A stretch of DNA of 64,000 bases from an uncultured Chloroflexia bacterium (GCA_963751345.1 CAVVUS010000019.1:32001-96000); one strand, 5' to 3'; positions 46,364-62,148 are shown, numbered from the stretch's first letter. Numbers and translations are program-made. Notes: generated by a model from the letters alone, not told the origin.

Positions 46364-46901
46364 ACGTGCCATCCTCCACTGTTCGAGCTGACGCGCTCCG
46401 GTGGAAGCAAACCTTGGTGTCATGGGGCCCGGCTGTCTGAGCGAGGGGTTGGGCGCACCATCGGAATCGAGCCTCCATTCATTATAGCTTGGTTTCACCG
46501 ACGAGCATCACGCTGGGGCTAGCTTGACACAGTGATCGTGCTTCTGTGTCACCGAGACCTAATGGTTCGCCCCGTGGATCGACCGGTAGACCTGCGTTGT
46601 CAGCCAATTGCTGCACTCGGGCGCTACCCGCAATGCAAAGGGCGCCCTCTGATAGGCGTGTCAAACCACATTTCCATCGCTATTCCAACTCTACGATCTC
46701 TTTCCGTAGGGGATGCCAACACGATCCGGCGCGTGCCGGGATCTTTCTGGGGGATAATGATTGATGATCACGAGCTGGGGTCGAATTGTGTTTCGGATCC
46801 AGTGGGTCGGATCACCCACATTATGCGGTGGAACGTAATGTCGCCGCTGCAAGAGGCGGTCCCAAGGTATCTCACTCTATCCTGGGGGGTAATTTGTACT
46901 A

Positions 46902-46930
46902 TTGCATTCTTTTCAATATTGTTTTATAAT
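46902..46930 (+). promoter_or_regulatory. Putative sigma70 promoter of the exopolysaccharide operon
   Basis: TTGCAT-17 nt-TATAAT in an AT-rich stretch about 85 nt upstream of ATG 47014. Confidence 0.65.
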
Positions 46931-47013
46931 GTATATGATTGAGTGGGAATTAACGTGACGCAACATGCATTGCTCAAACTTTAGGTGGCAAGTGAAAAGG
47001 CGGAGGGTGTGCG

Positions 47014-49534
47014 ATGAACCGTAGGTATCGAGTGGGCCTTCGTATCGTGTATGTCGTGGTTCTTCTGTTGTCGGTGTCGGTCGGACAGGTACGGGCCGAT
47101 CCGATCGATACGCCAATCGGGCCGCCGTTGCCGCAGCAGCCCGATCTGCCGTTCCACCTGCAGTCCGGTCCCCTTACACGGGTACCATAGCGCCTCTGGC
47201 CGTCACGTCGGCGCCGCCGCTGAAGGTGATCACGGACCCGACGCTGGATATGAGAGTGCTCGTCATCATGGATAGCGAGATCCAGGTCATCGACTATACG
47301 TCCGACGGCGTTAACCAGATGATCACTGGGCTATCTGGACATCCTGGGTATCCCCTATGACGTCCATCGATATCAACGGTCGGGACCGGGCGTTCCACTG
47401 TTCACCGATGCGGAACTGTGGGACGGGGTGAACCACGGCAACTACTACGCGATCTTTGTCGGCACCTACGCTGTCTGGTTGTATGGACCGGACAAGCTCA
47501 CCGCTGACGAGCGTGCTCCTGATCCAGGCCTACGAGCGCAATTTCGACGTGCGACAGGTGACGTGGTACGCGTACCACTGAGGCCACCCAATGGGGACTT
47601 GATCCTGGGCCAGACGGCGGTCAGCCGTGACGACGACGCTGACAGACGCAACGGCGAGACGGTCTTCAGCTACCTCAAGTCCGACATCGAGCTACCGATC
47701 ACCGATGCCTACACCTATCTCGGGACACGTGCTGCTGGGGCCGTCGTCACACCACTGCTCGAGTTCCGCGATCCGGCCACATCTACACGGACAGTCGATA
47801 GCTATCCGATCGTGAGCATCTTCGAGCCCACCGATTCCGGCGACCAGATGGTGGTGACGGCGGCTGCGTACTATCCCGCGACGCCGCCAGTGAGCATCCA
47901 GGCCGGCTGTTGCCCTACGGCATCATCAACTGGGCGACCAAGGGGGTTTTCCTCGGCCAGCGCCACCTCTACTTCACGCCGCAGCCCGACGATATGCTCT
48001 CGTATCGGCGACCGGTGGGATGCGACCACACACACTACGGTCTTTGATCAGGGCTTCCGGCTGAAACCGAGCGATGTGGACAATCTGATCTCGTGGATGA
48101 CTGCGTTCCGCGCCACGGCCAACGCAGCAGAACTTCAAGATCGAGATGCCATTCAACGGCGAGGGTGTGGAGTACGATACCGAGATGGCACGATGAACGG
48201 TACCATCCTGCCCAACACCCTGACGGCCAAGGTCATCAAGCAGACGTAAAGGACATTCGTCTGGCTCAATCACACGTGGAGCCATCCGGATCTCTACACG
48301 TCCACGTACCAGTTCGCATACGATGACATCTACAGCAACACCCTCACGGCCCAGCTTCTCGGCTTCACGGATTACACGACCACCACGCTGCTGACGGGGG
48401 CCTACAGCGGGCTGACAAACACCAGGTGATCAGCGCCGCCTACGACCTGGGCGTCCGCTACATGGAGTCGAACGCATCGCAGCCGGGCTTCAACAATCCC
48501 AGCCCCAACACCGGGATCTACACCGGCACCGGCGGGGCGATGCTCCTGGTGCCGCGCCTGGCCAACAAATCTTCTACTTCGCGGGCACGCCGGACGAGGA
48601 GGTGGACTACTACAACCTCGTGTACGATGCAATCAACGGTGCTGTACTATTGCGAGCCTATTACGACCACTCCGATTCCGGGGCACCTTTGCTACAACTA
48701 CAACGAGATCCTGGATAGGGTCACAAACCAGGCGCTGGGCTTCCTGCTCGACTTCAACGTCGACGCGACGATGTTCCATATGAACAACCTGAACCAGTAC
48801 TCGGGTGGCACCAACACCTTGATGGGCGACTACGTGACCGCGCTCTACAGCAAGTACAACACCTACTACAACACAACGTGCCGATCCTGAGCCCGCGCAC
48901 GCAGGAGATCGGCGACCTGATGCAGCAGCGGATGGACTACAACGCTTCCGGCGTATCGGGCATCATCGCCTGCGCCAACCAGATCACGGTGACCATCCCG
49001 ACGACCGCGACCACCGGCGCCCGGGTACCGGTCACCGGCGTGGACTTCGGCGGCGACACCGAGAACTACGCCGGGCAGGACATCTCCTACGTGCAGATGG
49101 GCATCGGCGAGACGGTGGTGATCCCCGGCACGGGGTCGGCTTCGACGCCGGCGCCGTCACCAATCTGCAGGTCACACCGGGGACGCCCACGACGCTGACC
49201 TGGGACTGCTGACCCGAATGCCTATGGCTACCGCGTCTACGGCAGCACGACGTCCGGTCACACCTGGCCTACAACCGAGCTGGGCGTGGTCACGACAGCG
49301 ACGTACTCCGATGACTCCGGCAGCACCTACTACGCCGTGACCGCGATCGCCAATGACTGCTGGAAACACGAGTCGGCGGCGTCCTTCGTGAATATACCCC
49401 CCACGGCACTGACGCTGGTCGGGATAGGCGCCACATCGGGCTCGCTCGTGCTCGTGGGCCTAGTCCCGCTGGCTGCGGTCGCCCTGGTGGTCCTGAGTCT
49501 CGTGTGGAGCAAGCGCAGGCATCAGGTAAGGTGA
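47014..49534 (+). CDS. Agd3-like (CE18) polysaccharide deacetylase with signal peptide and C-terminal membrane anchor, heavily frameshifted
   Basis: Signal peptide MNRRYRVGLRIVYVVVLLLSVSVGQVRA. Manual translation gives 'GIINWATKGVFLGQRHLYFTPQPDDM' (from 47919), 'WLNHTWSHPDL', 'LLTGAYSGL', 'LLVPR', 'TMFHMNNL', matching the Agd3 motif order. C-terminus is 'PPTALTL'+TM+'KRR'. Confidence 0.72.
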
Positions 49535-49540
49535 CCCATC

Positions 49541-51170
49541 ATGAGTGATCGCGCAAACGAAGTAGACGTTCGGGAACCCGATGGTGACGGCGGAAGCAGC
49601 ATCTTCCGCCATCACCCCCTGCGCGTCTGCCTCGTGGCCGAGGGAAGCTATCCTCACTACCGCGGCGGGGTCAGCACGTGGTGCGACATGCTGGTGCGCG
49701 GCATCACCGAGGTGCAGTTCTCGCTGGTAAGCATCATCGCCGACCCGAGTGTCGAGCCCGTCTACGAACTCCCCGGCAACGTGCGGGAGCTGCGGCCGGT
49801 GGCGCTCTGGGGAACCGGCGAGGTGCTTGAGCTGCATCGCGACCTGGGGTTGCTGGACGTGATTCGCAGGAAGCGCAGCGCACCCGCTCGCGTGATCGAG
49901 GGCGAGTTCCTGCCGTCCTTCGCCGAGTTCGTGGATCTGCTCTGGCAGGAGGAGGCGGCCCCGGACCGCGTCGCCCACACACTGCAGTCGATGGCGGCCT
50001 ACTTCGTCGGGCACGACTACGACATCACCATGCGGTCCCGCCTGGTGTGGGAGACCTTCCTGGAGCGCAGCGTGCCTGCGTATCAGGCCAGCCACGGGAG
50101 CGCGGCCCCGGTGGCGATGAGCGACGCTACAGACGTCATGCGATTGCTCTACCGGTGGCTCACCATGCTCTCGATCCCGGTCCCGGACGTGGACGTGATC
50201 CACGCGGCGTCGGCAGGGCTTGCCAGCATGATGGGCATCGTGGCTGCGGCGCGACCGGGCATCGCTTTCCTGCTGACCGAGCACGGCATCTACCTGCGCG
50301 AGCGGCTGCTGGCGCTCACCCGCAGCGAGAGCAGCGTCTTCGAGCAGGCCTTTCAGGCTGCTTTTGCCCAGCGGATCACCGAGGCGAGTTACTGGTCGGC
50401 CGACCAGATCGCGCCCGGCAGCAACTACAACCATCGCTGGGAGACCTACGTCGGCGCAGAGCCCTCGTTGATTCAGACCATCTACAACGGACCGGATCCC
50501 GCGGAGTTCACGCCGACGGTTCTGAATCGCCCACCGGGCGAGGCGCCGATCGTGATCTGGTTGGGCCGCATCGATCCGCTGAAGGATCTGGAGACGCTGA
50601 TCCGGGCGGCCGCCATCGTTGTCGACCAAATGCCCGATGTGCAGTTCGTGCTCTACGGCAAGGCTCCGAGGGGCAATGAATGGTACTACGACCGGTGCGT
50701 GGCTCTGAGGGATAGCCTGGGCATTGCGGACAACGTGACCTTCGCCGGCTTTGCCGCGAGTGCCGCGGCTGCCTACAACGAGGGGGATTTTGTGCTCCTC
50801 TCGAGCATCTCGGAGGGTTTCCCCTATAGCGTCGTCGAGGCAATGATGTGCGCGCGAACGGTCGTAGGCACCGATGTGGGGGGGGTGAGCGAGGCACTTG
50901 AGGATGTTGGGCTGGTGGTGGAGCCCCGGAACCCGGAGCAGATGGCCCAGGCCTGTCTCAAGCTGCTGCGAGACCCGGACCTGGCCCGAGAGATGGGGCG
51001 GCGGGCGCGGGAGAAGGCGCTGTCGCAGTTCAGCCTCCAGCAGTGCAATGCTGCTTATCTGTCAACCTATCAATCCCTGGCACGCCGGGCCCGGCTCGGG
51101 ACAGGGCGACCGCCGGATCGCGGAATCGGCAGCCGTGGCAACTCCGGTACCGCAGGTGGTGCGGCGATGA
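49541..51170 (+). CDS. pelF: PelF-like GT4 glycosyltransferase (DUF3492 + Glycos_transf_1)
   Basis: 'VCLVAEGSYPHYRGGVSTWCD', 'LLTEHGIYLRER', 'LGRIDPLKDLETL', 'LSSISEGFPYSVVEAM', 'TDVGG'. Probable true stop at TGA 51170 (ATGA overlap) after a frameshift. Confidence 0.88.
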
Positions 51171-52801
51171 GCCAGCCAAGCGGTCCCGTGAGCGCTCTGC
51201 CGTCGTCGCTGGAGGCCTACGAGTCGGTCCAGCTCCTTGCCGATGACATTCGCGACACCTGCCCCGCGCCTGTCAACACGCTGCAAATCGCGGCGCTCCT
51301 GGAGTCGGCCGGTGTGACCGACGCCATTGCCGCGCACCGCTACGGGTATCGCGATGTCTTTGGCGTGGCGGACACTGTCGCGGATCTGCTGGATGGGCGC
51401 GGCGTTTGACTGCGAGCCGCAGAAGGAGCCCGTTGCAGAGCCATCGACGGATTGGCGGTCGGCCACGATGAACTATCTGCGCGGCCCCCTGGGGGTCGTG
51501 CCGCTGGTCCTGCTGATGTCGATTGTCGGGGCGTTGCAGAGCTTCGGCCAGTGGCAAGGACCGCGGGTGCTCACGTTGAGCGCTGCAACGATTGGCAGCC
51601 TGCTCATCACAGGTGGGTTCGTGCAGATCGCTTCGCGCAAAGGCTCCAGCTATCTTAGCCAGGGGTACGCCAGGGCCGCCGGGCGGTTCGTGGTCAGGAT
51701 GCTCGCCGTGGCCGTGGCCGTCGTCGTCGTGACTGCCTTCCCGCTCGCCTGGATGGGTCGGGCGACCGGGTGGCTGGCGGCGACTGATGCGCCACTGATG
51801 ATGATCGCCTACGTTGCGCTCTCCTGTCTGTGGTTGCTGTCGGCGGTGCTCTCGATCTTCAAGCGCGTACACTGGTTTGGCATCGCCCTCGCATTGGGCG
51901 TGGGCCTCAGCCGTCTGTCGCTGATCGGGCTCGCGCGGTCGACGCTGCTGCCTCAGGTGACGGTTGGGGTGGCTGTGGGGGTGGGACTCCTGGTGACGAT
52001 CGGGGTGGGGGCTTGGGCTGCCCTGCGGGCGGTGTCTGCGGAATCCTCCGCGTCGGAGAGTGGCGACCACGTCGTCCGGACGCCGCCGCTGCCCCAACTT
52101 GTGGTCAATCTGACGCCCTATTTCATCTATGGCATCATCTATATTCTGGCCGTGCTCTCGGGGCACGTGGGGGGATGGCTCGGGCGGCTCCCCGCGGGAC
52201 TTGACCGTATGGACGCGATTGCGAGAAGCGAGCTGGGCCTCACGGTCGCACTTGTGGCGTACATCCTGGTCGGCGGCGTGGCAGAGGAGACAATGCAGCG
52301 CTTCTGGCAGTGGGTTCACGTCTATCAGGCGGAAACGATGGCGGCACAGCCCGGTGGCTTCTCGGCGAAGCTGCGTGACTTCCAGCGTACCGAGCTCAGG
52401 TGGTTTGTTGTCGCGTTTCTGGCGTCCGCGGGCCTGGTGCTCGTGCTCGTGGCCGTGAGTCGTGGTGCTTTCCCCAGACGGCATGCTGCTTGGGTTGCCC
52501 TGGGGACCGGACCTGGGCCATCGTGCTCGGCTTCGGCCTGGTCGGCTGTGGCCTGCTGGGTATCAGTGCGTTCGACTGCATGATGCTGATCACGCTCTCC
52601 CGCCCGTGGCCCGCGGTGCTGGCCCTTACTGCCGGCACGGTGACCACGCTCATTGCGAGTCTTGGCTGGGGGCATTGGGTGGGCTTCGCGTATGGTGCGG
52701 CCGGGATGGTTTTCGGGAATCTGGTTGCTTTTCTGGTGGCACACCGCGCCTTGCAGCGCGTGTTGCGTCACGCTGATTACTACTACTTCACGTCGTTTTA
52801 G
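51167..52801 (+). CDS. Multi-TM membrane protein at the PelG-like (export/polymerisation) position, two frameshifts
   Basis: N-terminal 'QIAALLESAGVTD..A..RYGYRDVFGVA', about 12 TM segments, 'SLLITGGFVQ...RKGSSY', 'PYFIYG', C-terminal 'ADYYYF'. Confidence 0.65.
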
Positions 52802-52853
52802 AGCGCGGGATGCCTCCCGCGACATCTACCACACCAAGCAGCACAAGGAGGCA

Positions 52854-53846
52854 ATGATGGATTGGACAGGGAAACGAGTTCTCGTGACGGGCGCGAGTGG
52901 GTTCATCGGTAGTCATCTGGTTGAGGCCCTCGTAGGTGAGGGCGCCACGGTGCGCGCGCTCGCCCACTACAACTCACGAAACGATGCCGGGCTGTTGCGC
53001 CGGCTGCCGCCCGACGTGCAGCGCGAGGTCGACGTCTTCTACGGGGATCTCAAGGATCCCTGGTCGGTGCATCAGGCGATGGAGGGGACGGAGACCGTCT
53101 TCCACCTCGGCGCACTCATCGGGATCCCGTACTCATACGTGAATCCCTACGACGTCGTGCAGACGAATGTCCTGGGCACCTACCACGTGCTGGCGGCTGC
53201 CCGGGATCTTGGCGTGGGCCGCGTGGTCCACACGTCGACGAGCGAGGTGTACGGGTCGGCGCAGTATGTGCCGATCGACGAGAACCATCCGCTGCAGGGC
53301 CAGTCGCCCTACAGCGCGAGCAAGATCGGCGCGGACAAGCTTGCGGAGAGCTTCTATCTCTCTTTCGAGCTTCCCGTCAGCACGGTCCGGCCCTTCAATA
53401 CCTATGGGCCGCGCCAGTCTGCGCGGGCTGTGATCCCCACGATCATCACCCAGGCGCTGACCCAGGATTTCGTCAAGCTGGGCGCGCTCTATCCGCGGCG
53501 CGATTTTACCTATGCGACGGATACGGCGGCGGGCTTCATCGCGGCTGCCGAGAGCGATGCTACCGTCGGGCAGGTGGTCAACCTCGGCACCGGTGATGAC
53601 ATCACCATTGGGGAGCTGGTCGACCTGGTCGTTGAACTCATCGGTCGCGATATCGAGGTGCGAAGTGACCAGGGGCGGATTCGACCGGAGGGAAGTGAGG
53701 TGGTACGTCTGCTGTCCAACAATCAGAAGGCGAAGGCGATCATGGGATGGGAACCGCGGGTCGGATTTCGTGAGGGCTTGGAGAGGACAATTTCGTGGAT
53801 TGGCGAGAACCTGGACCTCTATCAAACGGAGCGGTACACGATATAG
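52854..53846 (+). CDS. NAD-dependent NDP-sugar 4,6-dehydratase/epimerase (LegB-like extended SDR)
   Basis: 'VLVTGASGFIGSHL', 'YNSRN', 'FHLGALIGIPYSY', 'TSTSEVYG', 'QSPYSASK', 'PFNTYGPRQSARAVIPTII'. Confidence 0.85.
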   Translation: MMDWTGKRVLVTGASGFIGSHLVEALVGEGATVRALAHYNSRNDAGLLRRLPPDVQREVDVFYGDLKDPWSVHQAMEGTETVFHLGALIGIPYSYVNPYDVVQTNVLGTYHVLAAARDLGVGRVVHTSTSEVYGSAQYVPIDENHPLQGQSPYSASKIGADKLAESFYLSFELPVSTVRPFNTYGPRQSARAVIPTIITQALTQDFVKLGALYPRRDFTYATDTAAGFIAAAESDATVGQVVNLGTGDDITIGELVDLVVELIGRDIEVRSDQGRIRPEGSEVVRLLSNNQKAKAIMGWEPRVGFREGLERTISWIGENLDLYQTERYTI

Positions 53847-53895
53847 CGCTGGATCTTTTTGGAATGATGCTTGTGCCGAATTTGGGGGGTGTGAA

Positions 53896-54658
53896 ATGAA
53901 AGCAGTGATTATGGCAGGCGGGAAAGGGACGCGGCTGGCGCCTTTTACGAAGGTACTTCCGAAACCACTTGATACCGCTGGGGGACTATCCCATCCTGGA
54001 GATCATCATCAGCCAGCTCAGAGAGGCCGGATTTGATGAGATCATCCTGACCGTCAATTACCTGGCCCATCTCTTTGAGGCCTACTTCGGCAATGGTGAG
54101 CGGCTGGGGGTCAACATCCGGTATTCGCTGGAGGAGCGGCCTCTGGGAACGGCAGGGCCCCTGGCACTGATCGACGGCCTCGATGAGGAGCCGTTCCTTG
54201 TGATGAATGCGGATTTGCTGACCGACATTGACTTCCGGCATCTCTACTCGACGCACCTCGCACAGGACGCCGCGGTCACGATGGCGCTCTATGCCAAGGA
54301 GTACAAGATTGACTTCGGCGTGATCGAGACGGATGACACCGGGCGGGTGTTGGCGTGCCGGGAGAAGCCGGTACTCAATTACCTGATCAATATGGGGGTC
54401 TACGTCGTCTCACCCTACGTCCTTGACGAGATCCCCTACAACAGCTTCTTCGACATGACGGACGTCATCGCACGGGTCAGTCCCAGCCCGAGGGGTGTCT
54501 ATGGCTACCGGTTTGAGGGCACGTGGATGGATCTGGGCAAGGTCGATGACTTCGACCGGGTCGCGTCGAAGTTCCAGCACCTGATCTCGGTCGCGGAGAC
54601 GCGGATCCCGCTCGAATCGTACATCCATCTCCTGTCGGCAGCGCCGGCGGAGGCATAG
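53896..54658 (+). CDS. Sugar-1-phosphate nucleotidyltransferase, frameshift near 53968
   Basis: 'MKAVIMAGGKGTRLAPFTKVLPKPL' joins 'IPLGDYPILE', 'PLGTAGPL', 'VMNADLLTD', 'INMGVY', 'WMDLG'. Confidence 0.9.
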
Positions 54659-54661
54659 GCT

Positions 54662-55612
54662 GTGGAGCGAATGGCCGGCCCGGTGCTGGTGACCGGGGCG
54701 ACAGGGTTTGTGGGTCGCCACATGATCGACTTGCTGTTGAGCCACGGGTACGAGGTAGCCGCGGCGAGCATCCCCGGCGATCCCCTTCTCGCCGCGCTGC
54801 CGCCGGGCGTCTCCCGGTTGGCGTTCGACATCCTCGACCTTGACGCCACGACCGGGGTGCTGGCCCAACTGCACCCGTCTGTCGTCTTCCACCTTGCGGG
54901 GCTCGCGCGCGGCGGTGACCTCCAGCGGCTGCTGGCAGTGAACGTCATAGGCACAGAGTGTCTGCTCAAGGCAGCACGCGCGCTGGATCAGCCCGCCACC
55001 GTGGTCATACCGGGCTCCGCGTCGGAATATGGGATCCTCCCGGCTCCTGAGCCGGTGAACGAGGACGCGCCCCTCGCGCCGATCTCGGCGTACGGCGTGA
55101 GCAAGGCCGCGCAGACGCTGCTCGGGCTGAGCTATGCGCGGCGCGGTGACGTGCCTGTGGTGGTGGGGCGGATCTTCAACATCACGGGGCCGCGTGAGCC
55201 GCAGGCCATGCTCGTCGGGGCGATGGCCGGGCAGGTCGCCGCGATTGAGCGAGGCCGGCTCCCGGCCGTGGTCAGCGTCGGCAATCTCGATCCCTATCGC
55301 GATTACATCGATGTCCGCGATGCTGTGCAGGGTCTGTGGCTGCTCTGGCGCTATGGCGAGTCGGGCCGGGCGTATAACCTGTGCAGCGGCACCGCGATCC
55401 AGGTGCGTGAGGTGGTACGGAGGGTGGTGGCGCTGTCGAGCGTGCCGATCAGGATCGAGCCCGATCCCGACCGCCAAAGGCCCTCTGACATCCCGTACTG
55501 TGCCGGGGATCCGCAGCGTGTAGCATCCGCCACGGGCTGGCAGCCGCAGTATTCGCTCGACGAATCGCTCCAGGCTACGCTTTCGTGGTGGCGAGAGGCG
55601 TCGCAAGCCTAA
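54662..55612 (+). CDS. NAD(P)-dependent NDP-4-keto-6-deoxysugar reductase/epimerase (Rmd-like extended SDR)
   Basis: 'VLVTGATGFVGRH', 'VFHLAG', 'GSASEYG', 'YGVSK', 'FNITGP', 'VGNLDPYRDYIDVRD', 'YNLCSG', 'DPDRQRPSD'. Confidence 0.8.
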   Translation: MERMAGPVLVTGATGFVGRHMIDLLLSHGYEVAAASIPGDPLLAALPPGVSRLAFDILDLDATTGVLAQLHPSVVFHLAGLARGGDLQRLLAVNVIGTECLLKAARALDQPATVVIPGSASEYGILPAPEPVNEDAPLAPISAYGVSKAAQTLLGLSYARRGDVPVVVGRIFNITGPREPQAMLVGAMAGQVAAIERGRLPAVVSVGNLDPYRDYIDVRDAVQGLWLLWRYGESGRAYNLCSGTAIQVREVVRRVVALSSVPIRIEPDPDRQRPSDIPYCAGDPQRVASATGWQPQYSLDESLQATLSWWREASQA

Positions 55613-56355
55613 GGCAGCGTATCGAGCCGGTAGTTCGTGACGAAGGGCACGAACCCGTGGGCCAGGGCACGCTTGATCGCTTTGGCCCTCAGAGCGTGGT
55701 CGCCGGGCGCCGCGTAATCGAGCGCCAGCAGTACATGCCGGTCGAAGGTCGCCCGCAATTCCAGGGCTTTCTGCGTCGTCCACGCGAGGTCCGCGCCGAG
55801 CCACGATCTGTAGCGTGTGCCGTCGTAGTGGCTGGTGAACGCCTCGAAGACCACGCCGTCCGCCACCTCGCGGACCGTCTCCAGGACAGTGAACCCACGA
55901 TTGACGAGCAGGCCGGTCTCCGGATAGGCCGCCCGGATCCGACGCATCAGCTGCTCAACCCCTGGTCGTGTATCCGCGACTCGGTCCTGCACGTCCACTG
56001 TGTCGAGAAAGAGTCCGCTGAAACCTACGCCCAGCAGGCGTGGCACCAGATCGTCGAGCACGTGATCCTGCCACAGCAACGACCGGCAGTCCACCAGACC
56101 CGTACCCCACTTCAGATTCACCATGGGTCTGCCGGTATCGGGATCGAGGATCTGCCACGGGCCCTCCGCTTCGGATCCGAAGGCTTCTCCCAACGATAGG
56201 TAAGCGAACGTCCGCGTGCCTGCCGCCTCGAGGGAGGCGATCTCCGGAGGCGTGTAGTGGGCGGCCTGCAGGATCACCAGATTGTAGGCTGCCAACTGGA
56301 CGAGGCGGCCCATACCGTAATAACACGCGTATCGCGTAGGTAGTGCCAATCGCAT
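55609..56355 (-). CDS. Endo-alpha-1,4-polygalactosaminidase-like hydrolase (GH114/GH166, PelA hydrolase-like), no signal peptide
   Basis: 'YACYYG', 'FAYLSLGE', 'GFSGLFLDTVD', 'LLVNRGF', 'GVVFEAF', 'LLALDY'. Confidence 0.85.
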   Translation of the reverse strand: MRLALPTRYACYYGMGRLVQLAAYNLVILQAAHYTPPEIASLEAAGTRTFAYLSLGEAFGSEAEGPWQILDPDTGRPMVNLKWGTGLVDCRSLLWQDHVLDDLVPRLLGVGFSGLFLDTVDVQDRVADTRPGVEQLMRRIRAAYPETGLLVNRGFTVLETVREVADGVVFEAFTSHYDGTRYRSWLGADLAWTTQKALELRATFDRHVLLALDYAAPGDHALRAKAIKRALAHGFVPFVTNYRLDTLP

Positions 56356-56463
56356 ACGTATTTATTCCCCCCACATTCCCTCCGCTCTGCCCGGTCCACG
56401 TATTATAGACGATGTCGATCGGGTTGTCCGCCTCTCCTGTTCTAACCGTAATCCTCCTTGTGC

Positions 56464-56492
56464 TTGCGTTATGGTTGTATTATGACTATAAT
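56464..56492 (+). promoter_or_regulatory. Sigma70 promoter
   Basis: TTGCGT-17 nt-TATAAT upstream of the two-domain hydrolase. Confidence 0.65.
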
Positions 56493-56512
56493 GCGCGGCA
56501 TGGAGGTATTAC

Positions 56513-58760
56513 ATGATGGTAAGCGAGATGTGTTTCAAAGTTGGCCGTTGGATGCGGCCCGCGGCGAAGAGCACTGTGGTGCTCATTCTCCTGCTGGTCC
56601 TCACACCACTGGCACAGGTCTCGGCACTGGCCGCAGCACCCGACATCGAGACACCAGCAGCGCAAGCCGCCGATCCGCCGTATAGGGTGTTTGTGCCCCT
56701 TCTGCGGCGCGATCCGGTACCCTCTCTTTCCACACCCACACCAACTCCTTCACCTACACAGGCTCCAGGCGGGGCCGACTGGTCCTCAGTAGAGACTTGG
56801 GTTTATCAACTATCGGGTTACACGAATGACTCACTGGATGAGATTGCAGCAAGCGGCTTCGACATGGCCGTGATCGATCTGGCTCGCGACGGTGGCAGCG
56901 ACTACTGGTCGCGCAGCGAGATCAATGCACTCCGGGCAACCGGTACGATCGCATTGGCCTACTTCGAAGTTGGGGCCATCGAGAACTACCGGCCGGAGTG
57001 GGGGGATGTCCCGGCTGATATGAAGCTGGGGGCTGTCTCGGGATGGCCATCAGAGCAATATGTGGCCTACTGGGACCCACGTTGGTGGCCGATCGTGCAA
57101 GGACGCGTCGACCAGGCGATTGCCGCGGGTTTCGATGGCGCCTACCTCGACATGATCGTGACCTATGAGGAGATCCCCGCCGGTGCAGCCGGGACCAACC
57201 GCGCCGATCTGGCCCAGAAGATGGTGGATCTGATCGCGCGCCTTTCGACGTATGCCAAGGCGCAGGATCCGGACTTCAAAGTTGTACCGCAGAACTCGCC
57301 CGAGCTGCGGAAGTACAATGGTTACCTGGATGCGATCGACGGGCTGGGCATGGAGGAGCTGTACTTCAAGGCTACAGACCGCGCGTGCACGCAGGCCTGG
57401 TGCTACGAGAACCAGGACAACGCCGCCGCGGTGGCGGCTGCCGGCAAACCGGTCCTGACCATCGATTACGCTAACGATCCGGCCAATATCGACAGCGCCT
57501 ACGAGCAGTCGTTGGCGGCCGGTTTTGTGCCTTACGTGAGCGTCGTCAACCTCGATGTCGTGCGACTCAACTGCCCCTGGAGACCACACCCGGTTCATCC
57601 GCCGCACCCGGGCGACCCGAAGTCCACCCCGACCCCAACCGGTACACCTGACCCAACCGCTACACCCGTGCCAACGTCGACGCCAACAAGCACGGCCACA
57701 GCCACCTTGACACCCACAAGTTCACCTACGGCATCGCCGACGCCGACGAGCCCGCCCACGGCGACGCCGCAGCCCACCAATACACCGACGCCGACGGCGA
57801 CGCCCACGGCAACCCCGACACCTACGAGCACGCCTACGGCAACGCCGCAGCCGACCAATACACCTACGCCGACGGCGACGCCCACGGCGACCCCGACACC
57901 TACGAATACACCTACACCCACCCCAACCGCACCGGCGGGCGGGGGCAACTGGGGGTCGGTATCGGACTGGGTCTATCAGCTGAGCGGGTACCAGAACGAC
58001 AGCCTGAACCAGATCGCCGCAAGCAACTTCGATCTGGCGGTCGTGGATCTGGCACGTGACGGTGAAGCAGATTACTTCACGCGAGCCGAGGTGCAGGCGG
58101 CACAGGCTACGGGCAAGATCATACTGGCCTACTTCGAAATCGGGGCCATCGAGAACTATCGCCCGGAGTGGGGGGACGTCCCGGCGGATATGAAGCTGGG
58201 CGCCGTGGACGGATGGCCGTCGGAGCAGTATGTGGCCTACTGGGATCCTCGCTGGTGGCCGATCGTGCAGGGCCGGGTTGACCAGGCCCTGGCAGCAGGC
58301 TTCGATGGCTGCTATCTGGACATGATCGTGACCTATGAGGAGATCCCCGCGGGCGCCGCAGGCACCAACCGTGCCGATCTGGCACAGAAGATGGTGGACC
58401 TGATCGCGCGCCTTTCGGCCTACGCCAAGGCAAAGGCCCCTGACTTCAAGGTGGTGCCACAGAACTCACCTGAGCTGCGGACGAATACGGGTTATATGAG
58501 CGCCATCGACGGTCTGGGTATGGAAGAGCTCTACTTCATGGCGACGGACAAAGCCTGCAGCCAGAGCTGGTGCATCGAGAACCGAGACAACGCTGCTGCG
58601 ATCGCAGCAGGCGGGGAAACTCGTGCTGTCGATTGACTACGCCAACAATCAGGCGAACATCAGCAGCGCCTACACCCAATCGCGTGCTGCGGGGTTTGTG
58701 CCCTACGTGAGCGTGGTGGCCTTGGACGTGATGCGCATCAACCCGGGGTTCGAGCCCTGA
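56513..58760 (+). CDS. Secreted protein with two GH114-like (MJ1477/TM1410-type) domains joined by a Pro/Thr linker, frameshift near 58615
   Basis: Signal peptide; 'WVYQLSGY', '[14 protein letters not shown]', 'YVAYWDPRW', 'GFDG.YLD', 'VVPQNSPEL', 'G.GMEEL', '.IDYA' each occur twice. Confidence 0.85.
57620..57930 (+). repeat. Pro/Thr-rich linker with approximately 78-bp tandem units
   Basis: '[24 protein letters not shown]' occurs twice, with matching DNA. Confidence 0.85.
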
Positions 58761-58831
58761 TCTCTGTCGTTGAGAATCACTGAGCCGACCGGGTCGGGAG
58801 CACTCCCGTACGTCGCTTCCGGCCCGGCCGT

Positions 58832-58858
58832 GAGATGGCACCCATCGGGTGCCATCTC
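58832..58858 (+). terminator. Hairpin, probable intrinsic terminator
   Basis: gagatggcaccc-atc-gggtgccatctc is a perfect 12-bp stem followed by ttgctt. Confidence 0.6.
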
Positions 58859-58886
58859 TTGCTTATAGTTGCATTCTAATTATAAT
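58859..58886 (+). promoter_or_regulatory. Sigma70 promoter resembling the one at 56464
   Basis: TTGCTT-16 nt-TATAAT. Confidence 0.6.
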
Positions 58887-58904
58887 GGCGTAATGGGTTT
58901 GCGA

Positions 58905-59972
58905 ATGATGACCACAAGAACCACGTTCCTCGTCGGGAGCCGCCTGCGTGCACTTGGTGCAGTCCTGGTTCTGGCGGGAGTCACGCTCGCGCCGGTTCCC
59001 TTTGCCAGGTCGTCCGATCTGGGTGGGTCTACCTCTGGTCCGCTACCTGCCGCGCTTGCCGCCGCCGCGGAGGGGACGCGCGTCTACTTGCCGCTGGTTC
59101 AAGGTCAGATGCCCCCCGCGGTTTCTCCGCCGACACCGGTCCCGCCGTCCGACGATGGGAGCTGGAATGGCGTCGCGAACTGGGTCTACCAACTGAGTGG
59201 TTATCCCAATGGTTGCCTTGACCAGATCGCCGGTTCGGGCTTCGATCTGGCGGTGGTCGACCTCGCCCGCGACGGGAGCGATGACTACTTCACACGCGCC
59301 GAGGTCGGGGCTGCCCAGGCGACGGGCAAGGTGATGCTGGCCTATTTCGAGATCGGCGCCATCGAGGACTATCGTCCCGAGTGGGGTGACGTTCCGGCGG
59401 ATATGAAACTCGGCGCTGTGGACGGGTGGCCCTCCGAGCAGTACGTGGCCTACTGGGATCCGCGCTGGTGGCCGATCGTGCAGGGCAGGGTCGACCAGGC
59501 GCTTGCGGCGGGCTTCGACGGCTGCTATCTGGACATGATCGTGACCTACGAGGAGATCCCGGCCGGCGCCGCAGGCACCAATCGGGCGGATCTGGCTCGA
59601 AAGATGGTCGACCTGATCGCGCGTCTCTCGGCTTACGCCAAGGCGCGGGATCCGGGCTTTAGGGTAGTCCCACAGAACTCACCGGAGTTACGTGAGGTCT
59701 CAGGCTATCTGGACGCGGTCGACGGGCTGGGCATCGAGGAGCTCTACTTCCTGGCCACGGACAAGGCGTGCACCCAGACCTGGTGCTACGAGAACCGGGA
59801 TCACGCTGCGGCGATTGGGGCCGCGGGGAAGCTCGTCCTGACCATCGACTACGCCAACCAGCAGGCCAACATCGATAGCGCCTACAAGCAGTCGTCGGCC
59901 GCGGGTTTTGTGCCCTACGTGAGCGTCCGGAACCTCGACGTCGCGCGACTCAACGTCGGATGGGAGCCGTAA
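58905..59972 (+). CDS. Secreted single-domain GH114-like (MJ1477/TM1410-type) hydrolase
   Basis: Signal-like N-terminus, 'RVYLPLVQ', and a catalytic domain nearly identical to both domains of 56513..58760. Confidence 0.87.
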   Translation: MMTTRTTFLVGSRLRALGAVLVLAGVTLAPVPFARSSDLGGSTSGPLPAALAAAAEGTRVYLPLVQGQMPPAVSPPTPVPPSDDGSWNGVANWVYQLSGYPNGCLDQIAGSGFDLAVVDLARDGSDDYFTRAEVGAAQATGKVMLAYFEIGAIEDYRPEWGDVPADMKLGAVDGWPSEQYVAYWDPRWWPIVQGRVDQALAAGFDGCYLDMIVTYEEIPAGAAGTNRADLARKMVDLIARLSAYAKARDPGFRVVPQNSPELREVSGYLDAVDGLGIEELYFLATDKACTQTWCYENRDHAAAIGAAGKLVLTIDYANQQANIDSAYKQSSAAGFVPYVSVRNLDVARLNVGWEP

Positions 59973-60195: not shown

Positions 60196-62148
60196 ATGCG
60201 ACGTCGGTGGTTATTTGGCATCCTGATTCTGTTGGCGCTGGCGGTGCGCCCGACGTACGCCGCGCCCGCTCCACCGGAGGACTTCGGCGGCGGGCCGATC
60301 GAGCCCCCGCGGTCCGAGATTTCCGACGCGGAATGGGCCTCGATTCAGCACGACGTCGATGCGGCCATCGCGCAGCTCGAGGCCGACGGTCGCCTCTCCG
60401 CGGCGAGTGGGGAGGCCGTCTCCTTCGGCTGGCCGCTGCGCGCGGCCAACGGGCTCACCGACTACGGCTACCACGGCGTCTCGGGCTTCGTCGATCACAA
60501 CCCGGCGACGGGCGCGTGGCTCGACTACACCTGCGGCAATAGATCCTACGATCTGAGCAGCGGCTACGATCACCAGGGCACCGACTTCTTCACGTATCCC
60601 TATCCCTGGTACAAGGTGGAGCACTCCGAGGTCGAGATCGTGGCCGCAGCAGCGGGCACCCTGGTCTCCCGACACGATGGGGAGTATGACCGGCAGTGCG
60701 CGATGACCGGCGTCACCGCCAACTCCGTCGTGATCCGCCACGCCGATGGGACGCTGGCCTACTATCTGCACATGAAGAAGGGGTCCGTTACGCCCAAGGG
60801 TGTCGGGGCATCCATCGCGGCGGGGGAGTACCTCGGCGTCGTCGCGAGCTCCGGCAGCTCGACGGGGCCCCACCTTCACTTCGAGGTGCGGTCGGCGACC
60901 AATCAGGTGCTCGACCCCTTCCACGGTGCCTGCAACGCGCCGGCGTCCATGTGGGCAGACCAACCTCCCTATTACGATTCGGCGGTGATCGCGGTTCACA
61001 CCGGTGATGCGCCACCCTACCGGCCCACGTGCCCCGGCGTCGAGACGACGCACATCGAGGACCATTTCGCGCCCGACGACACGGTCTATTTCGTGACCAC
61101 CTATCGCGACCAGCTTGCCGGACAGCAGAGCACCTACCGGGTTATCCGGCCTGACGGCTCCACGTACCAGACCCGGACCTATACCGCCACCTACCCGCAC
61201 TACACCGCCTCGTACTGGTACTGGTCGACGGGCCTTGATCTGTACGGGACGCCGCCCCTGGGCACGTGGCGCTTCGAGGTCGACTTCGAGGGCCGGACCT
61301 ACGAGAACGAGTTCCACGTCGGCGTGCCGACGGCGATCACCGTGACCTATCTTAACGGCGGGGAGGCCTGGCCTACGCGCGGCGTACTCCCTATCACCTG
61401 GGACGACACGGTGCCCGGCAATGTCGGGATCGATCTCTACGCCGGCGGGGCGCTCACCCGGCCGATCACCACGTCCACGCCCAGCGACGGCGTCGTCTTC
61501 TGGGGGATTCCTGCAGATCTGGCGCCAAGGACCGACTACCAGGTGCGGATCACGGAGCTGGCCAACCCCGCCGTCTTTGACGAGAGCGACGCCGCCTTCA
61601 CGATCGCGCCCGTGCCGGTGGCGGACTTCGTCGCGGCGCCGGTCACGGGGATTGCGCCGCTGACGGTGAGCTTCACCGACACTTCCAGCTCGCTCGTGGA
61701 TGCGTGGCGGTGGGGGTTCGGCGACGGGATCACGGCGACCCTGCAGTACCCAACGCACGTCTACACTACCACCGGCGTCTATACGGTTACCCTGTCGGCA
61801 ACCGGCCCGACGGGTACCGGCGTGATCACCCGCACGGATGCCATCACGGTCACGCCGCCGCCGCTTGCCGCGGACTTCACGGGCTACCCGATCCTGGGCA
61901 CGCCACCGTTGACGGTCACCTTTACCGACCGCTCGGTTGGCCCGCCGGTTGGGGCGTGGGCGTGGGCCTTTGGCGACGGCATCACCAGCACGCTGCAGCA
62001 TCCTGTGCACGCCTACACGCAGACCGGCGTCTACACCGTCACGCTGGGCGTCATCGCGGCGGATGACGATGATCTCGTCGCGCGCCCGGCCTACGTCCAC
62101 GTCGTTGACCAGGTGTGGGGGGTGTACTTGCCGCTGGCCTTGCGGTAG
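60196..62148 (+). CDS. Secreted M23-family metallopeptidase with Ser/Thr-rich beta-domain and two PKD domains
   Basis: Signal peptide; 'HQGTD', 'YYLHM', 'SGSSTGPHLHFEV'; PKD 'WGFGDG..ATLQYPTHVYTTTGVYTVTL' twice; C-terminal 'VYLPLALR'. Confidence 0.9.
   Translation: MRRRWLFGILILLALAVRPTYAAPAPPEDFGGGPIEPPRSEISDAEWASIQHDVDAAIAQLEADGRLSAASGEAVSFGWPLRAANGLTDYGYHGVSGFVDHNPATGAWLDYTCGNRSYDLSSGYDHQGTDFFTYPYPWYKVEHSEVEIVAAAAGTLVSRHDGEYDRQCAMTGVTANSVVIRHADGTLAYYLHMKKGSVTPKGVGASIAAGEYLGVVASSGSSTGPHLHFEVRSATNQVLDPFHGACNAPASMWADQPPYYDSAVIAVHTGDAPPYRPTCPGVETTHIEDHFAPDDTVYFVTTYRDQLAGQQSTYRVIRPDGSTYQTRTYTATYPHYTASYWYWSTGLDLYGTPPLGTWRFEVDFEGRTYENEFHVGVPTAITVTYLNGGEAWPTRGVLPITWDDTVPGNVGIDLYAGGALTRPITTSTPSDGVVFWGIPADLAPRTDYQVRITELANPAVFDESDAAFTIAPVPVADFVAAPVTGIAPLTVSFTDTSSSLVDAWRWGFGDGITATLQYPTHVYTTTGVYTVTLSATGPTGTGVITRTDAITVTPPPLAADFTGYPILGTPPLTVTFTDRSVGPPVGAWAWAFGDGITSTLQHPVHAYTQTGVYTVTLGVIAADDDDLVARPAYVHVVDQVWGVYLPLALR

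Follow-up and report, generated by a model that had tools for sequence, protein, structure and literature searches.

The stretch analysed here, referred to below as the window, comprises 64,000 nucleotides of one strand from an uncultured Chloroflexia bacterium (GCA_963751345.1 CAVVUS010000019.1:32001-96000). Sequence and translations place three plus-strand genes at 52854-55612, namely two short-chain dehydrogenases/reductases (SDR1 and SDR2) with a nucleotidyltransferase (NT) between them, in the order SDR1, NT, SDR2. The cassette shares its strand with the other genes of the plus-strand operon, with gaps of 3-77 nt between genes.

52854..53846, plus strand: SDR1, predicted LegB-like, NAD-dependent nucleoside diphosphate (NDP)-N-acetylhexosamine (HexNAc) 4,6-dehydratase, 330 aa, 437.4 bits on TIGR04180
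53896..54658, plus strand: NT, short-form sugar-1-phosphate nucleotidyltransferase (PF00483), 253 aa in orthologues, with a +1 frameshift near 53969
54662..55612, plus strand: SDR2, predicted Rmd-like NDP-4-keto-6-deoxy-sugar 4-reductase, 316 aa, last gene of the plus-strand operon

The original prediction had described this segment as a nucleotidyltransferase between a LegB-like and an Rmd-like SDR, and the genes and their motifs were indeed found at these positions. SDR1 carries YNSRN (residue 39), ALIGIPYSY (87), STSEVYG (128), QSPYSASK (150) and RQSARAVIP (187), and its catalytic residues are predicted to be T129, E131, Y153 and K157 within the STSEVYG and YSASK motifs. A search against Pfam returned GDP_Man_Dehyd (4.8e-68). 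Among the NCBIfam models, TIGR04180 ("NAD-dependent 4,6-dehydratase LegB") was ahead by a wide margin with 437.4 bits and 2.1e-131; the other scores were 158 bits for dTDP-glucose dehydratase, 122.1 for galE (cut-off 262.3) and 87.3 for gmd (cut-off 415). The best solved match in a sequence search of the PDB was a dTDP-glucose dehydratase (145 bits). Comparison with 24 LegBs from legionaminic acid (Leg) clusters showed that SDR1 is identical at 103 of the 109 columns that are near-invariant in this set (at least 23 of 24), at an overall identity of 52-57% to homologues in verified Leg clusters.

Legionaminic acid synthesis at the cassette was rejected because Leg genes are absent from its surroundings: tblastn detected no LegC, NeuB/LegI, NeuC/LegG, NeuD-type or CMP-transferase gene in positions 42001-64000 of the window, nor at three related loci (L013, L017, L018). 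The same queries did detect Leg genes in 24 other loci. According to the passages of PMC5378307 that deal with them, the characterised LegBs of Campylobacter jejuni and Tannerella forsythia accept GDP-N-acetylglucosamine (GDP-GlcNAc) alone and perform C4,6-dehydration without C5 epimerisation, and PtmE is specific for GTP. With the Leg pathway of these organisms (LegB/PtmE/LegC) the cassette shares the dehydratase family TIGR04180 and the NT family and, presumably, the first two steps leading to GDP-4-keto-6-deoxy-GlcNAc. It differs in the predicted fate of the 4-keto intermediate, which an Rmd-like SDR would reduce where the Leg pathway transaminates it, in the short form of its NT, and in the lack of Leg genes in the region searched.

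For SDR2, which shows the motifs GSASEYG, YGVSK and VGNLDPYRDYIDVRD, the assignment as an Rmd-type enzyme was borne out by an end-to-end alignment with a solved Rmd. Its match to the GDP-6-deoxy-D-lyxo-4-hexulose reductase 2pk3 reached 186.1 bits (8.1e-54) over residues 8-313, followed by the Pseudomonas aeruginosa Rmd 6x3b with 134.3 bits (4.6e-38), and the Ser/Tyr/Lys triad S119/Y144/K148 is invariant over 24 aligned sequences. SDR2 represents a separate subfamily: its homologues are 50-67% identical to it, after which the values fall to 45% or less. The cassette resembles the Gmd/Rmd pathway to GDP-D-rhamnose, known from Aneurinibacillus thermoaerophilus (2pk3) and P. aeruginosa (6x3b), where a 4,6-dehydratase and a 4-reductase likewise act in succession on a GDP-sugar. 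However, the dehydratase adjacent to SDR2 is LegB-like and not a GMD (437 bits on the LegB model, 87.3 on gmd with its cut-off of 415), so that the substrate of SDR2 is probably a HexNAc. Rmd reduces the 4-keto group to an equatorial OH; at about 40% identity, the sequence of SDR2 would suit either C4 configuration of the product, which is what distinguishes N-acetylquinovosamine (QuiNAc) from N-acetylfucosamine (FucNAc).

Among the cationic polysaccharides of biofilms, Pel and fungal galactosaminogalactan (GAG) serve as the reference, and a UDP-HexNAc 4-epimerase is regarded as all that their chemistry requires. A conventional explanation of the locus would have one of the two SDRs act as a PelX/Uge3-like C4-epimerase which supplies NDP-N-acetylgalactosamine (NDP-GalNAc) for a Pel/GAG-like poly-GalNAc. 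The functions of extended SDRs are hard to assign by sequence alone, and one SDR epimerase is common in Pel and GAG clusters; accounts of these clusters describe PelX (Pel) and Uge3 (GAG), UDP-GlcNAc/Glc C4-epimerases, as precursor-supply genes inside exopolysaccharide (EPS) clusters, which is the arrangement seen here too. But those are single UDP-sugar epimerases, whereas the present cassette holds three enzymes with dehydratase and reductase homology, and an epimerisation would require neither a second SDR nor an NT of its own. Neither SDR is nearest to PelX, which supports the original prediction: the PelX structures 6wj9 and 6wjb gave 108-110 bits with SDR1 and 63-66 bits with SDR2, well under the top matches of 145 and 186 bits, and on the galE model the two proteins stayed at 122 and 95.8 bits against a cut-off of 262.3. 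In SDR1, moreover, the T-S-E motif of dehydratases has its Glu, a residue with a role in dehydration according to work on GMD and RmlB. We consider canonical epimerase chemistry highly improbable for this operon.

The NT is split in the assembly: the N-terminal G-loop MKAVIMAGGKGTRLAPFTKVLPKPL is read in frame 1 and the rest (IPLGDYPILE...) in frame 2, with the switch near 53969, and the two pieces scored 29.3 and 106.9 bits, respectively, on PF00483. It forms one unbroken open reading frame (ORF) of about 253 aa in all 18 orthologous Pel-linked loci. Among solved structures, 8x7s (133 bits) comes closest, with the GDP-mannose pyrophosphorylase 7d72 (122 bits) next. Although homologous to the NT of Leg clusters, it is a short form, as those proteins measure 352-362 aa with a domain beginning at residue 120-133, and it thus does without their N-terminal extension of about 120 aa.

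Upstream and downstream of the cassette, the operon continues in the order Agd3-like CE18 deacetylase, PelF, PelG-like protein, SDR1, NT, SDR2, GH114 hydrolases:

47015..49534, plus strand: Agd3-like CE18 polysaccharide deacetylase with signal peptide and C-terminal membrane anchor, first gene of the operon, ATG at 47015, read in frames 1, 3 and 2
49541..51100, plus strand: PelF-like GT4 glycosyltransferase (DUF3492 and GT1 domains), 170.6 bits on NF038011 (cut-off 100), 160.6 bits on PF11997
51167..52801, plus strand: PelG-like multi-spanning membrane protein (relatives: 544-545 aa), to which an orthologue (L013:8468-10099) aligns by tblastn in three collinear pieces, in frames 2, 3 and 2
55609..56355, minus strand: small GH114-like protein, convergent with SDR2, 37.5 bits on PF03537, adjoining SDR2 in Pel-linked loci
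56513..58757, plus strand: secreted protein with two GH114 domains and Pro/Thr-rich linkers, 197.6 bits on PF03537 in 2 stretches, probable frameshift at about 58611-58651 (frame 2 to 3)
58869..59972, plus strand: secreted single-domain GH114 hydrolase, 115.8 bits on PF03537, 180.2 bits on TIGR01370, with orthologues after the cassette in relatives

The Agd3-like gene was identified through Pfam, where an intact orthologue of 862 aa (L013:4259-6844) matched Agd3_CE (PF25115, 91.2 bits) and CBM87 (PF25116); a PDB sequence search with this orthologue returned no match. For PelF, the PDB search returned generic GT4 enzymes alone, at 68 bits or less, which use UDP-, GDP- or ADP-sugars and thus leave the donor nucleotide unindicated. 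The middle fragment of the PelG-like protein scored 28.1 bits on PF16933 (cut-off 29), and its intact orthologue (L013:8468-10099) had no Pfam match at 1e-3. As it stands in the window, the ORF of PelF reads through to 51409 into the PelG-like N-terminus, and its residues 542-617 match the N-termini of PelG-like proteins of relatives. This N-terminal, cytoplasmic domain of about 75 aa (window 51164-51409, LQIAALLESAGVTD), fused in frame to PelF here, opens the membrane protein in relatives and has no family match.

Bamford et al. 2020 (PMC7229062) reported bacterial operons of the Agd3 type, in which an Agd3-like CE18 enzyme carrying CBM87 is combined with one or more GH114 genes, a multi-spanning membrane protein and a glycosyltransferase of the cytoplasm. 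All components listed there are present in the window, whereas SDR or NT genes go unmentioned in the main-text passages of that paper on these operons. Inspection of the unit 47015-59972, that is, of the operon and not of the whole genome, revealed neither a PelA-type deacetylase/hydrolase nor the c-di-GMP receptor module PelD/PelE, every ORF being otherwise assigned; the conserved unit has PelF as its sole glycosyltransferase and contains no 4-epimerase. Judged by its gene content, the host is therefore a bacterial Agd3-type operon with an added sugar-nucleotide cassette and not a canonical Pel operon, so that the "Pel-like operon" of the original prediction stands with regard to PelF but has to be replaced by an Agd3/PelF/PelG-like/GH114 type. 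Consensus scans for promoters and terminators in 46400-56600 were uninformative on the operon limits, with 2 hits compared to 2.7 in shuffled sequences and 4 compared to 4.7, respectively.

How tightly the cassette belongs to this operon was seen from related genomes. Among 41 relatives, PelF occurs in exactly those four genomes which have a Pel-linked SDR1 (71-84% identity), all of one genus (G000, which is the genome of the window, G007, G012 and G016), and the order PelF, PelG-like, SDR1, NT, SDR2, GH114 is kept in them. Metagenome contigs were then scanned with an alignment of SDR2 homologues, and the neighbours in the 80 loci retained were determined by tblastn; some contigs may come from the same organisms as the genomes counted, so these loci are not all independent. 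SDR2 reached at least 50% identity in 23 metagenome loci, and 21 of them have PelF, PelG-like, Agd3-like or GH114 neighbours (PelF in 11), the remaining two (L142, L147) lying on contigs too short to show neighbours. In the other 57 loci SDR2 is at most 42% identical, and no PelF, PelG-like, Agd3 or GH114 neighbour was seen in any of them. The gene order is kept even where the identity has dropped to 41-47% for the PelG-like and 39-49% for the Agd3-like protein. Beyond the eight-gene unit, the flanks vary among four long metagenome loci, and neither a phosphohexosamine mutase nor an N-acetyltransferase nor a second glycosyltransferase is conserved in them.

In larger taxonomic samples of 401 genomes each, 3 genomes at the phylum level and 16 at the class level contain PelF (G000 counted in both), and we examined the neighbourhoods of all 17 other PelF genomes. 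One of them (G507, PelF 63% identity) has the full cassette. Two genomes of a single genus (G547 and G751, PelF 67-69%) contain the same operon with the NT and without SDR1 or SDR2:

G547:C49:8200-28199 (L222) and G751:C578:1000-14738 (L223): NT-only operon of Agd3, PelF, PelG-like, NT, GH114 and GH114, with no room for SDRs

Elsewhere these two genomes have no more than an SDR1-family gene of 61-62% identity, and no SDR2 above 38%. The other 14 genomes, whose PelF shows 33-45% identity, have no cassette. Operons of this type that lack it occur in other Chloroflexota (G319, G669 and G759). A quick maximum likelihood (ML) tree of 29 PelFs, from which high-scoring segment pairs below 400 aa had been left out (this removed L134 and L146), united all PelFs with a module in one clade of 15 rows with an SH-aLRT value of 100. 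The NT-only pair is nested inside this clade at a weak support of 81, and it is consequently the NT which defines the clade; most of its members have the two SDRs, which were probably lost once. Since G547 and G751 retain the NT alone, the 6-deoxy step appears as an add-on within this operon type, and the polymer machinery would also run without it. By gene order and conservation, the cassette is a fixed part of the operon in one Chloroflexota clade, in agreement with the predicted dedicated pathway inside the operon. The family and motif matches are far beyond what chance would give, and the gene order recurs in relatives.

Outside this operon type, LegB-like dehydratases are widespread. A scan of genomes with the SDR1 alignment retained 80 loci of 52-65% identity from many bacterial phyla and archaea. 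In 62 of these loci the SDR1 homologue has an NT homologue at a distance of no more than 250 nt, while a true PelF, PelG-like or GH114 gene is present in none of the 80. Neighbourhoods were typed by tblastn, calibrated on NCBIfam-verified clusters, with LegC, NeuB, NeuC, NeuD and the CMP-transferase as markers of Leg clusters. The 86 rows divide into 24 legionaminic acid clusters, 28 cassettes of SDR1, NT and an aminotransferase, 13 of SDR1, NT and a reductase, 4 Pel-linked loci and 17 others; the reductase triads are located in ordinary GT4/GT2/Wzx/AsnB clusters. The aminotransferase triad, in which a LegB-like dehydratase and a short NT are joined by an aminotransferase resembling DegT/PseC, is very common in Chloroflexota and other phyla outside Leg clusters (for example L024, L026, L028-L030, L033 and L036-L039) and probably makes a GDP-4-amino-4,6-dideoxy-HexNAc. 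The LegB-like family looks like a common generator of GDP-4-keto-6-deoxy-HexNAc, which would then be transaminated in Leg clusters and aminotransferase triads or reduced in reductase triads and in the Agd3-type operon. Neither of the two widespread cassettes outside Leg clusters, the one with an aminotransferase and the one with a reductase, is treated in the literature found, and genes of this kind that are now annotated as "LegB" or "GDP-mannose 4,6-dehydratase" are therefore likely to be named imprecisely.

The phylogeny which the original prediction had proposed for its SDRs was calculated for SDR1. A quick ML tree with 87 rows groups the Pel-linked SDR1s in a clade of their own (SH-aLRT 100) within a poorly resolved non-Leg group, apart from most Leg-context enzymes; a mostly-Leg clade holds 29 rows, 24 of them from Leg context.

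Taken together, we read the three genes as a dedicated nucleotide-sugar module of an Agd3/PelF/PelG-like/GH114 operon, which would provide a 6-deoxy-HexNAc donor for PelF, and assign this reading a probability of roughly 0.5. The short NT would activate glucosamine-1-phosphate or GlcNAc-1-phosphate, most likely with GTP. SDR1 would then oxidise C4 and eliminate water across C5-C6 to give an NDP-2-acetamido-2,6-dideoxy-hexos-4-ulose, and SDR2 would reduce the 4-keto group to yield GDP-D-QuiNAc or GDP-D-FucNAc. Finally, the PelF-like GT4 enzyme would use this donor, and the polymer, secreted, processed by Agd3 and trimmed by GH114, would contain the 6-deoxy-HexNAc as monomer or co-monomer. The sequence of activation, 4,6-dehydration and 4-reduction agrees with the family matches of NT, SDR1 and SDR2, and this enzymatic part of the original prediction is the best-supported one at present. 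GDP-QuiNAc or GDP-FucNAc is the likely product because SDR1 keeps 103 of the 109 Leg-invariant residues. We infer the GDP moiety, the N-acetyl group, the C4 stereochemistry and the use of the product by PelF, the last of these from the strict linkage between cassette and operon, from PelF being the sole glycosyltransferase and from the missing epimerase. Compared with the earlier reading, four points are corrected: the operon is of the Agd3 type, the NT has a frameshift that is probably artefactual, SDR1 resembles LegB without being its orthologue, and members of the clade can do without the 6-deoxy branch.

The established routes to UDP-D-QuiNAc and UDP-D-FucNAc employ a WbpM or PglF-type dehydratase, of the Polysacc_synt_2 type, together with a WbpV/WreQ or WbpK reductase. 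The predicted net chemistry from HexNAc via 4-keto-6-deoxy-HexNAc to QuiNAc or FucNAc is the same, but these routes are UDP-linked, whereas the enzyme families found here are GDP-linked. For the Leg pathway, the use of GDP-GlcNAc has been proposed in a 2026 preprint to separate it from UDP pools (10.64898/2026.04.20.719630).

A number of observations weigh against our reading, beginning with the general one that enzyme functions throughout the clade are predicted from sequence. With 437.4 bits SDR1 remains below the curated TIGR04180 cut-off of 475, as do its Pel-linked orthologues (427.9-439.3); the Leg-context rows score 440-542, and 7 of these 24 also fall under 475 (439.9-471.7). SDR1 is placed outside the mostly-Leg clade, and W47L, A86G and Y101V, three of its six departures from the near-invariant columns, are systematic differences from the Leg-context enzymes. 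The claim that SDR1 is a LegB thus holds for the family, to which it belongs by a wide margin and with 103 of 109 columns conserved, and not for orthology. The top solved relative of the NT is annotated as a UTP-glucose-1-phosphate uridylyltransferase, which makes its nucleotide uncertain.

The position of SDR1 outside the Leg clade and under the LegB cut-off would also suit a 6-deoxyhexose lacking the N-acetyl group, be it GDP-D-rhamnose or GDP-6-deoxy-D-talose from mannose-1-phosphate, or NDP-quinovose or NDP-fucose from glucose-1-phosphate, in which case SDR1 would have shifted away from HexNAc. The nearest characterised relatives of SDR2 act on GDP-4-keto-6-deoxy-mannose, and the top NCBIfam and PDB matches of the NT include mannose-1-phosphate guanylyltransferases and a UGPase. 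Against such a shift, the Leg-invariant columns are largely retained in SDR1, the three systematic changes are common to the aminotransferase- and reductase-linked cassettes, the score on the GMD model is far under its cut-off (87 versus 415 bits), and the processing enzymes of the operon come from families of amino-sugar polymers. A product without N-acetyl group is accordingly regarded as unlikely.

The remaining counterarguments concern the polymer and not the sugar nucleotide. Canonical PelF is described as a user of UDP-sugars. The Agd3 and GH114 families are known for GalNAc/galactosamine polymers (PMC7229062), and the operons of G547 and G751 evidently manage with the NT alone. The 6-deoxy sugar might be made without being the main monomer, in that it primes or caps the polymer or is one of its minor substituents, or enters a co-regulated glycoconjugate via a glycosyltransferase encoded elsewhere; 13 of the 86 loci do have a cassette of LegB-like dehydratase, NT and reductase within an ordinary heteropolysaccharide cluster of the GT4/GT2/Wzx kind. 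On the other hand, there is one glycosyltransferase in the conserved unit while the flanks vary by lineage, and the confinement of SDR2 at 50% identity or more to the Agd3-type operon is hard to square with loose co-regulation. A subsidiary role of this kind appears rather unlikely to us, although somewhat conceivable. The NT-only variant fits a PelF clade which uses either the NDP-HexNAc of the NT or its 6-deoxy derivative, and is just as compatible with a deoxysugar that makes up a small part of the polymer.

Returning to the 6-deoxy-HexNAc donor, a more far-reaching proposal can be put forward tentatively, as doubtful but worth stating. A Chloroflexota clade would possess a cationic, Pel/GAG-like synthase-dependent EPS with a backbone of GDP-activated 6-deoxy-HexNAc (D-FucNAc or D-QuiNAc), in which PelF would be a GDP-sugar-dependent polymerase, the precursor an undescribed nucleotide sugar and the GDP pool a means of insulating the EPS from the UDP-GlcNAc of the cell wall; from the same GDP-HexNAc, the NT-only lineages would produce a polymer that retains the 6-hydroxyl. 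Three enzymes of GDP-linked deoxysugar pathways are hard-wired into an Agd3/PelF/PelG-like/GH114 machinery, and this conserved cassette hints at a polymer chemistry which has not been described. If the product is incorporated, both the polymer, a 6-deoxy poly-HexN(Ac), and its nucleotide sugar would be new, and the PelF family would include an enzyme with a different donor. Lineages with the full cassette and those with the NT only offer a natural comparison for what the 6-deoxy step adds. No mention of GDP-QuiNAc, GDP-FucNAc or their variants, or of PelF, PelG and Chloroflexi together, was found in the searchable literature (part of PMC, without supplements), and none of the matches listed, as judged by titles and abstracts, describes an NT/dehydratase/6-deoxy cassette in a pel operon.

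The broken reading frames deserve a separate consideration. Besides the NT, frame changes affect the Agd3-like gene (47015-49534), the PelG-like gene and the double-GH114 gene, with breaks also placed near 51391-51429 and 52460-52490, and it might be argued that these are real, that the locus is decaying and that the pathway is dead in this organism. With at least 6 frame changes in 47000-58800 the density of about 0.5 per kb exceeds the genome mean of 0.27 per kb. SDR1, SDR2 and PelF are intact, however, and frame changes are found throughout the genome. The metagenome-assembled genome (MAG) of the window (G000) is 93% complete in 49 contigs. From 400 kb of three same-genus genomes, 176 ORFs of at least 300 aa were searched against it, and 132 were retained with an orthologue of at least 55% identity and at least 80% coverage. 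Frame changes were present in 39 of these 132 conserved genes (50 events in 184 kb, about 0.27 per kb), including genes 93-96% identical to their relatives; examples of split genes are C23:252416-254539, C44:75528-92334 and C38:32814-47299. For this reason ORF-based readings of this MAG generally need a caveat.

An independent sequencing run (X1), the single run detected, with 5% of the sequence words, yielded contigs of low depth from a related strain. Inside the garbled stretches of the Agd3-like gene, these contigs depart from the window at 48004 and 48568, each time by a one-base indel. No X1 contig spans the frameshift of the NT, record 4 beginning at 53969. Given the 39 affected genes among 132, the unbroken NT of all 18 orthologous loci and the indels seen against X1, the frameshift in the NT and the neighbouring breaks are most likely assembly errors. 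Pseudogenisation of the locus was rejected on the genome-wide rate of frame changes and is judged very unlikely.

Some further observations were made in and around the operon. The three GH114 domains encoded at 56513-58757 and 58869-59972 are 67-69% identical to each other, and the GH114 genes are followed by an M23 peptidase with PKD domains at 60196-62148. A HAD-family hydrolase is encoded just upstream of the Agd3-like gene in two of the four long metagenome loci (L134:709-1254 and L136:1345-1788) and could be a sugar-phosphate phosphatase or a mutase of the pathway. In the same-genus genome G016, a second Agd3-like gene (an open frame of 880 aa) is located directly upstream of the operon (L013:491-4024, C89), accompanied by a second NT paralogue which is 61% identical to the NT of the window.

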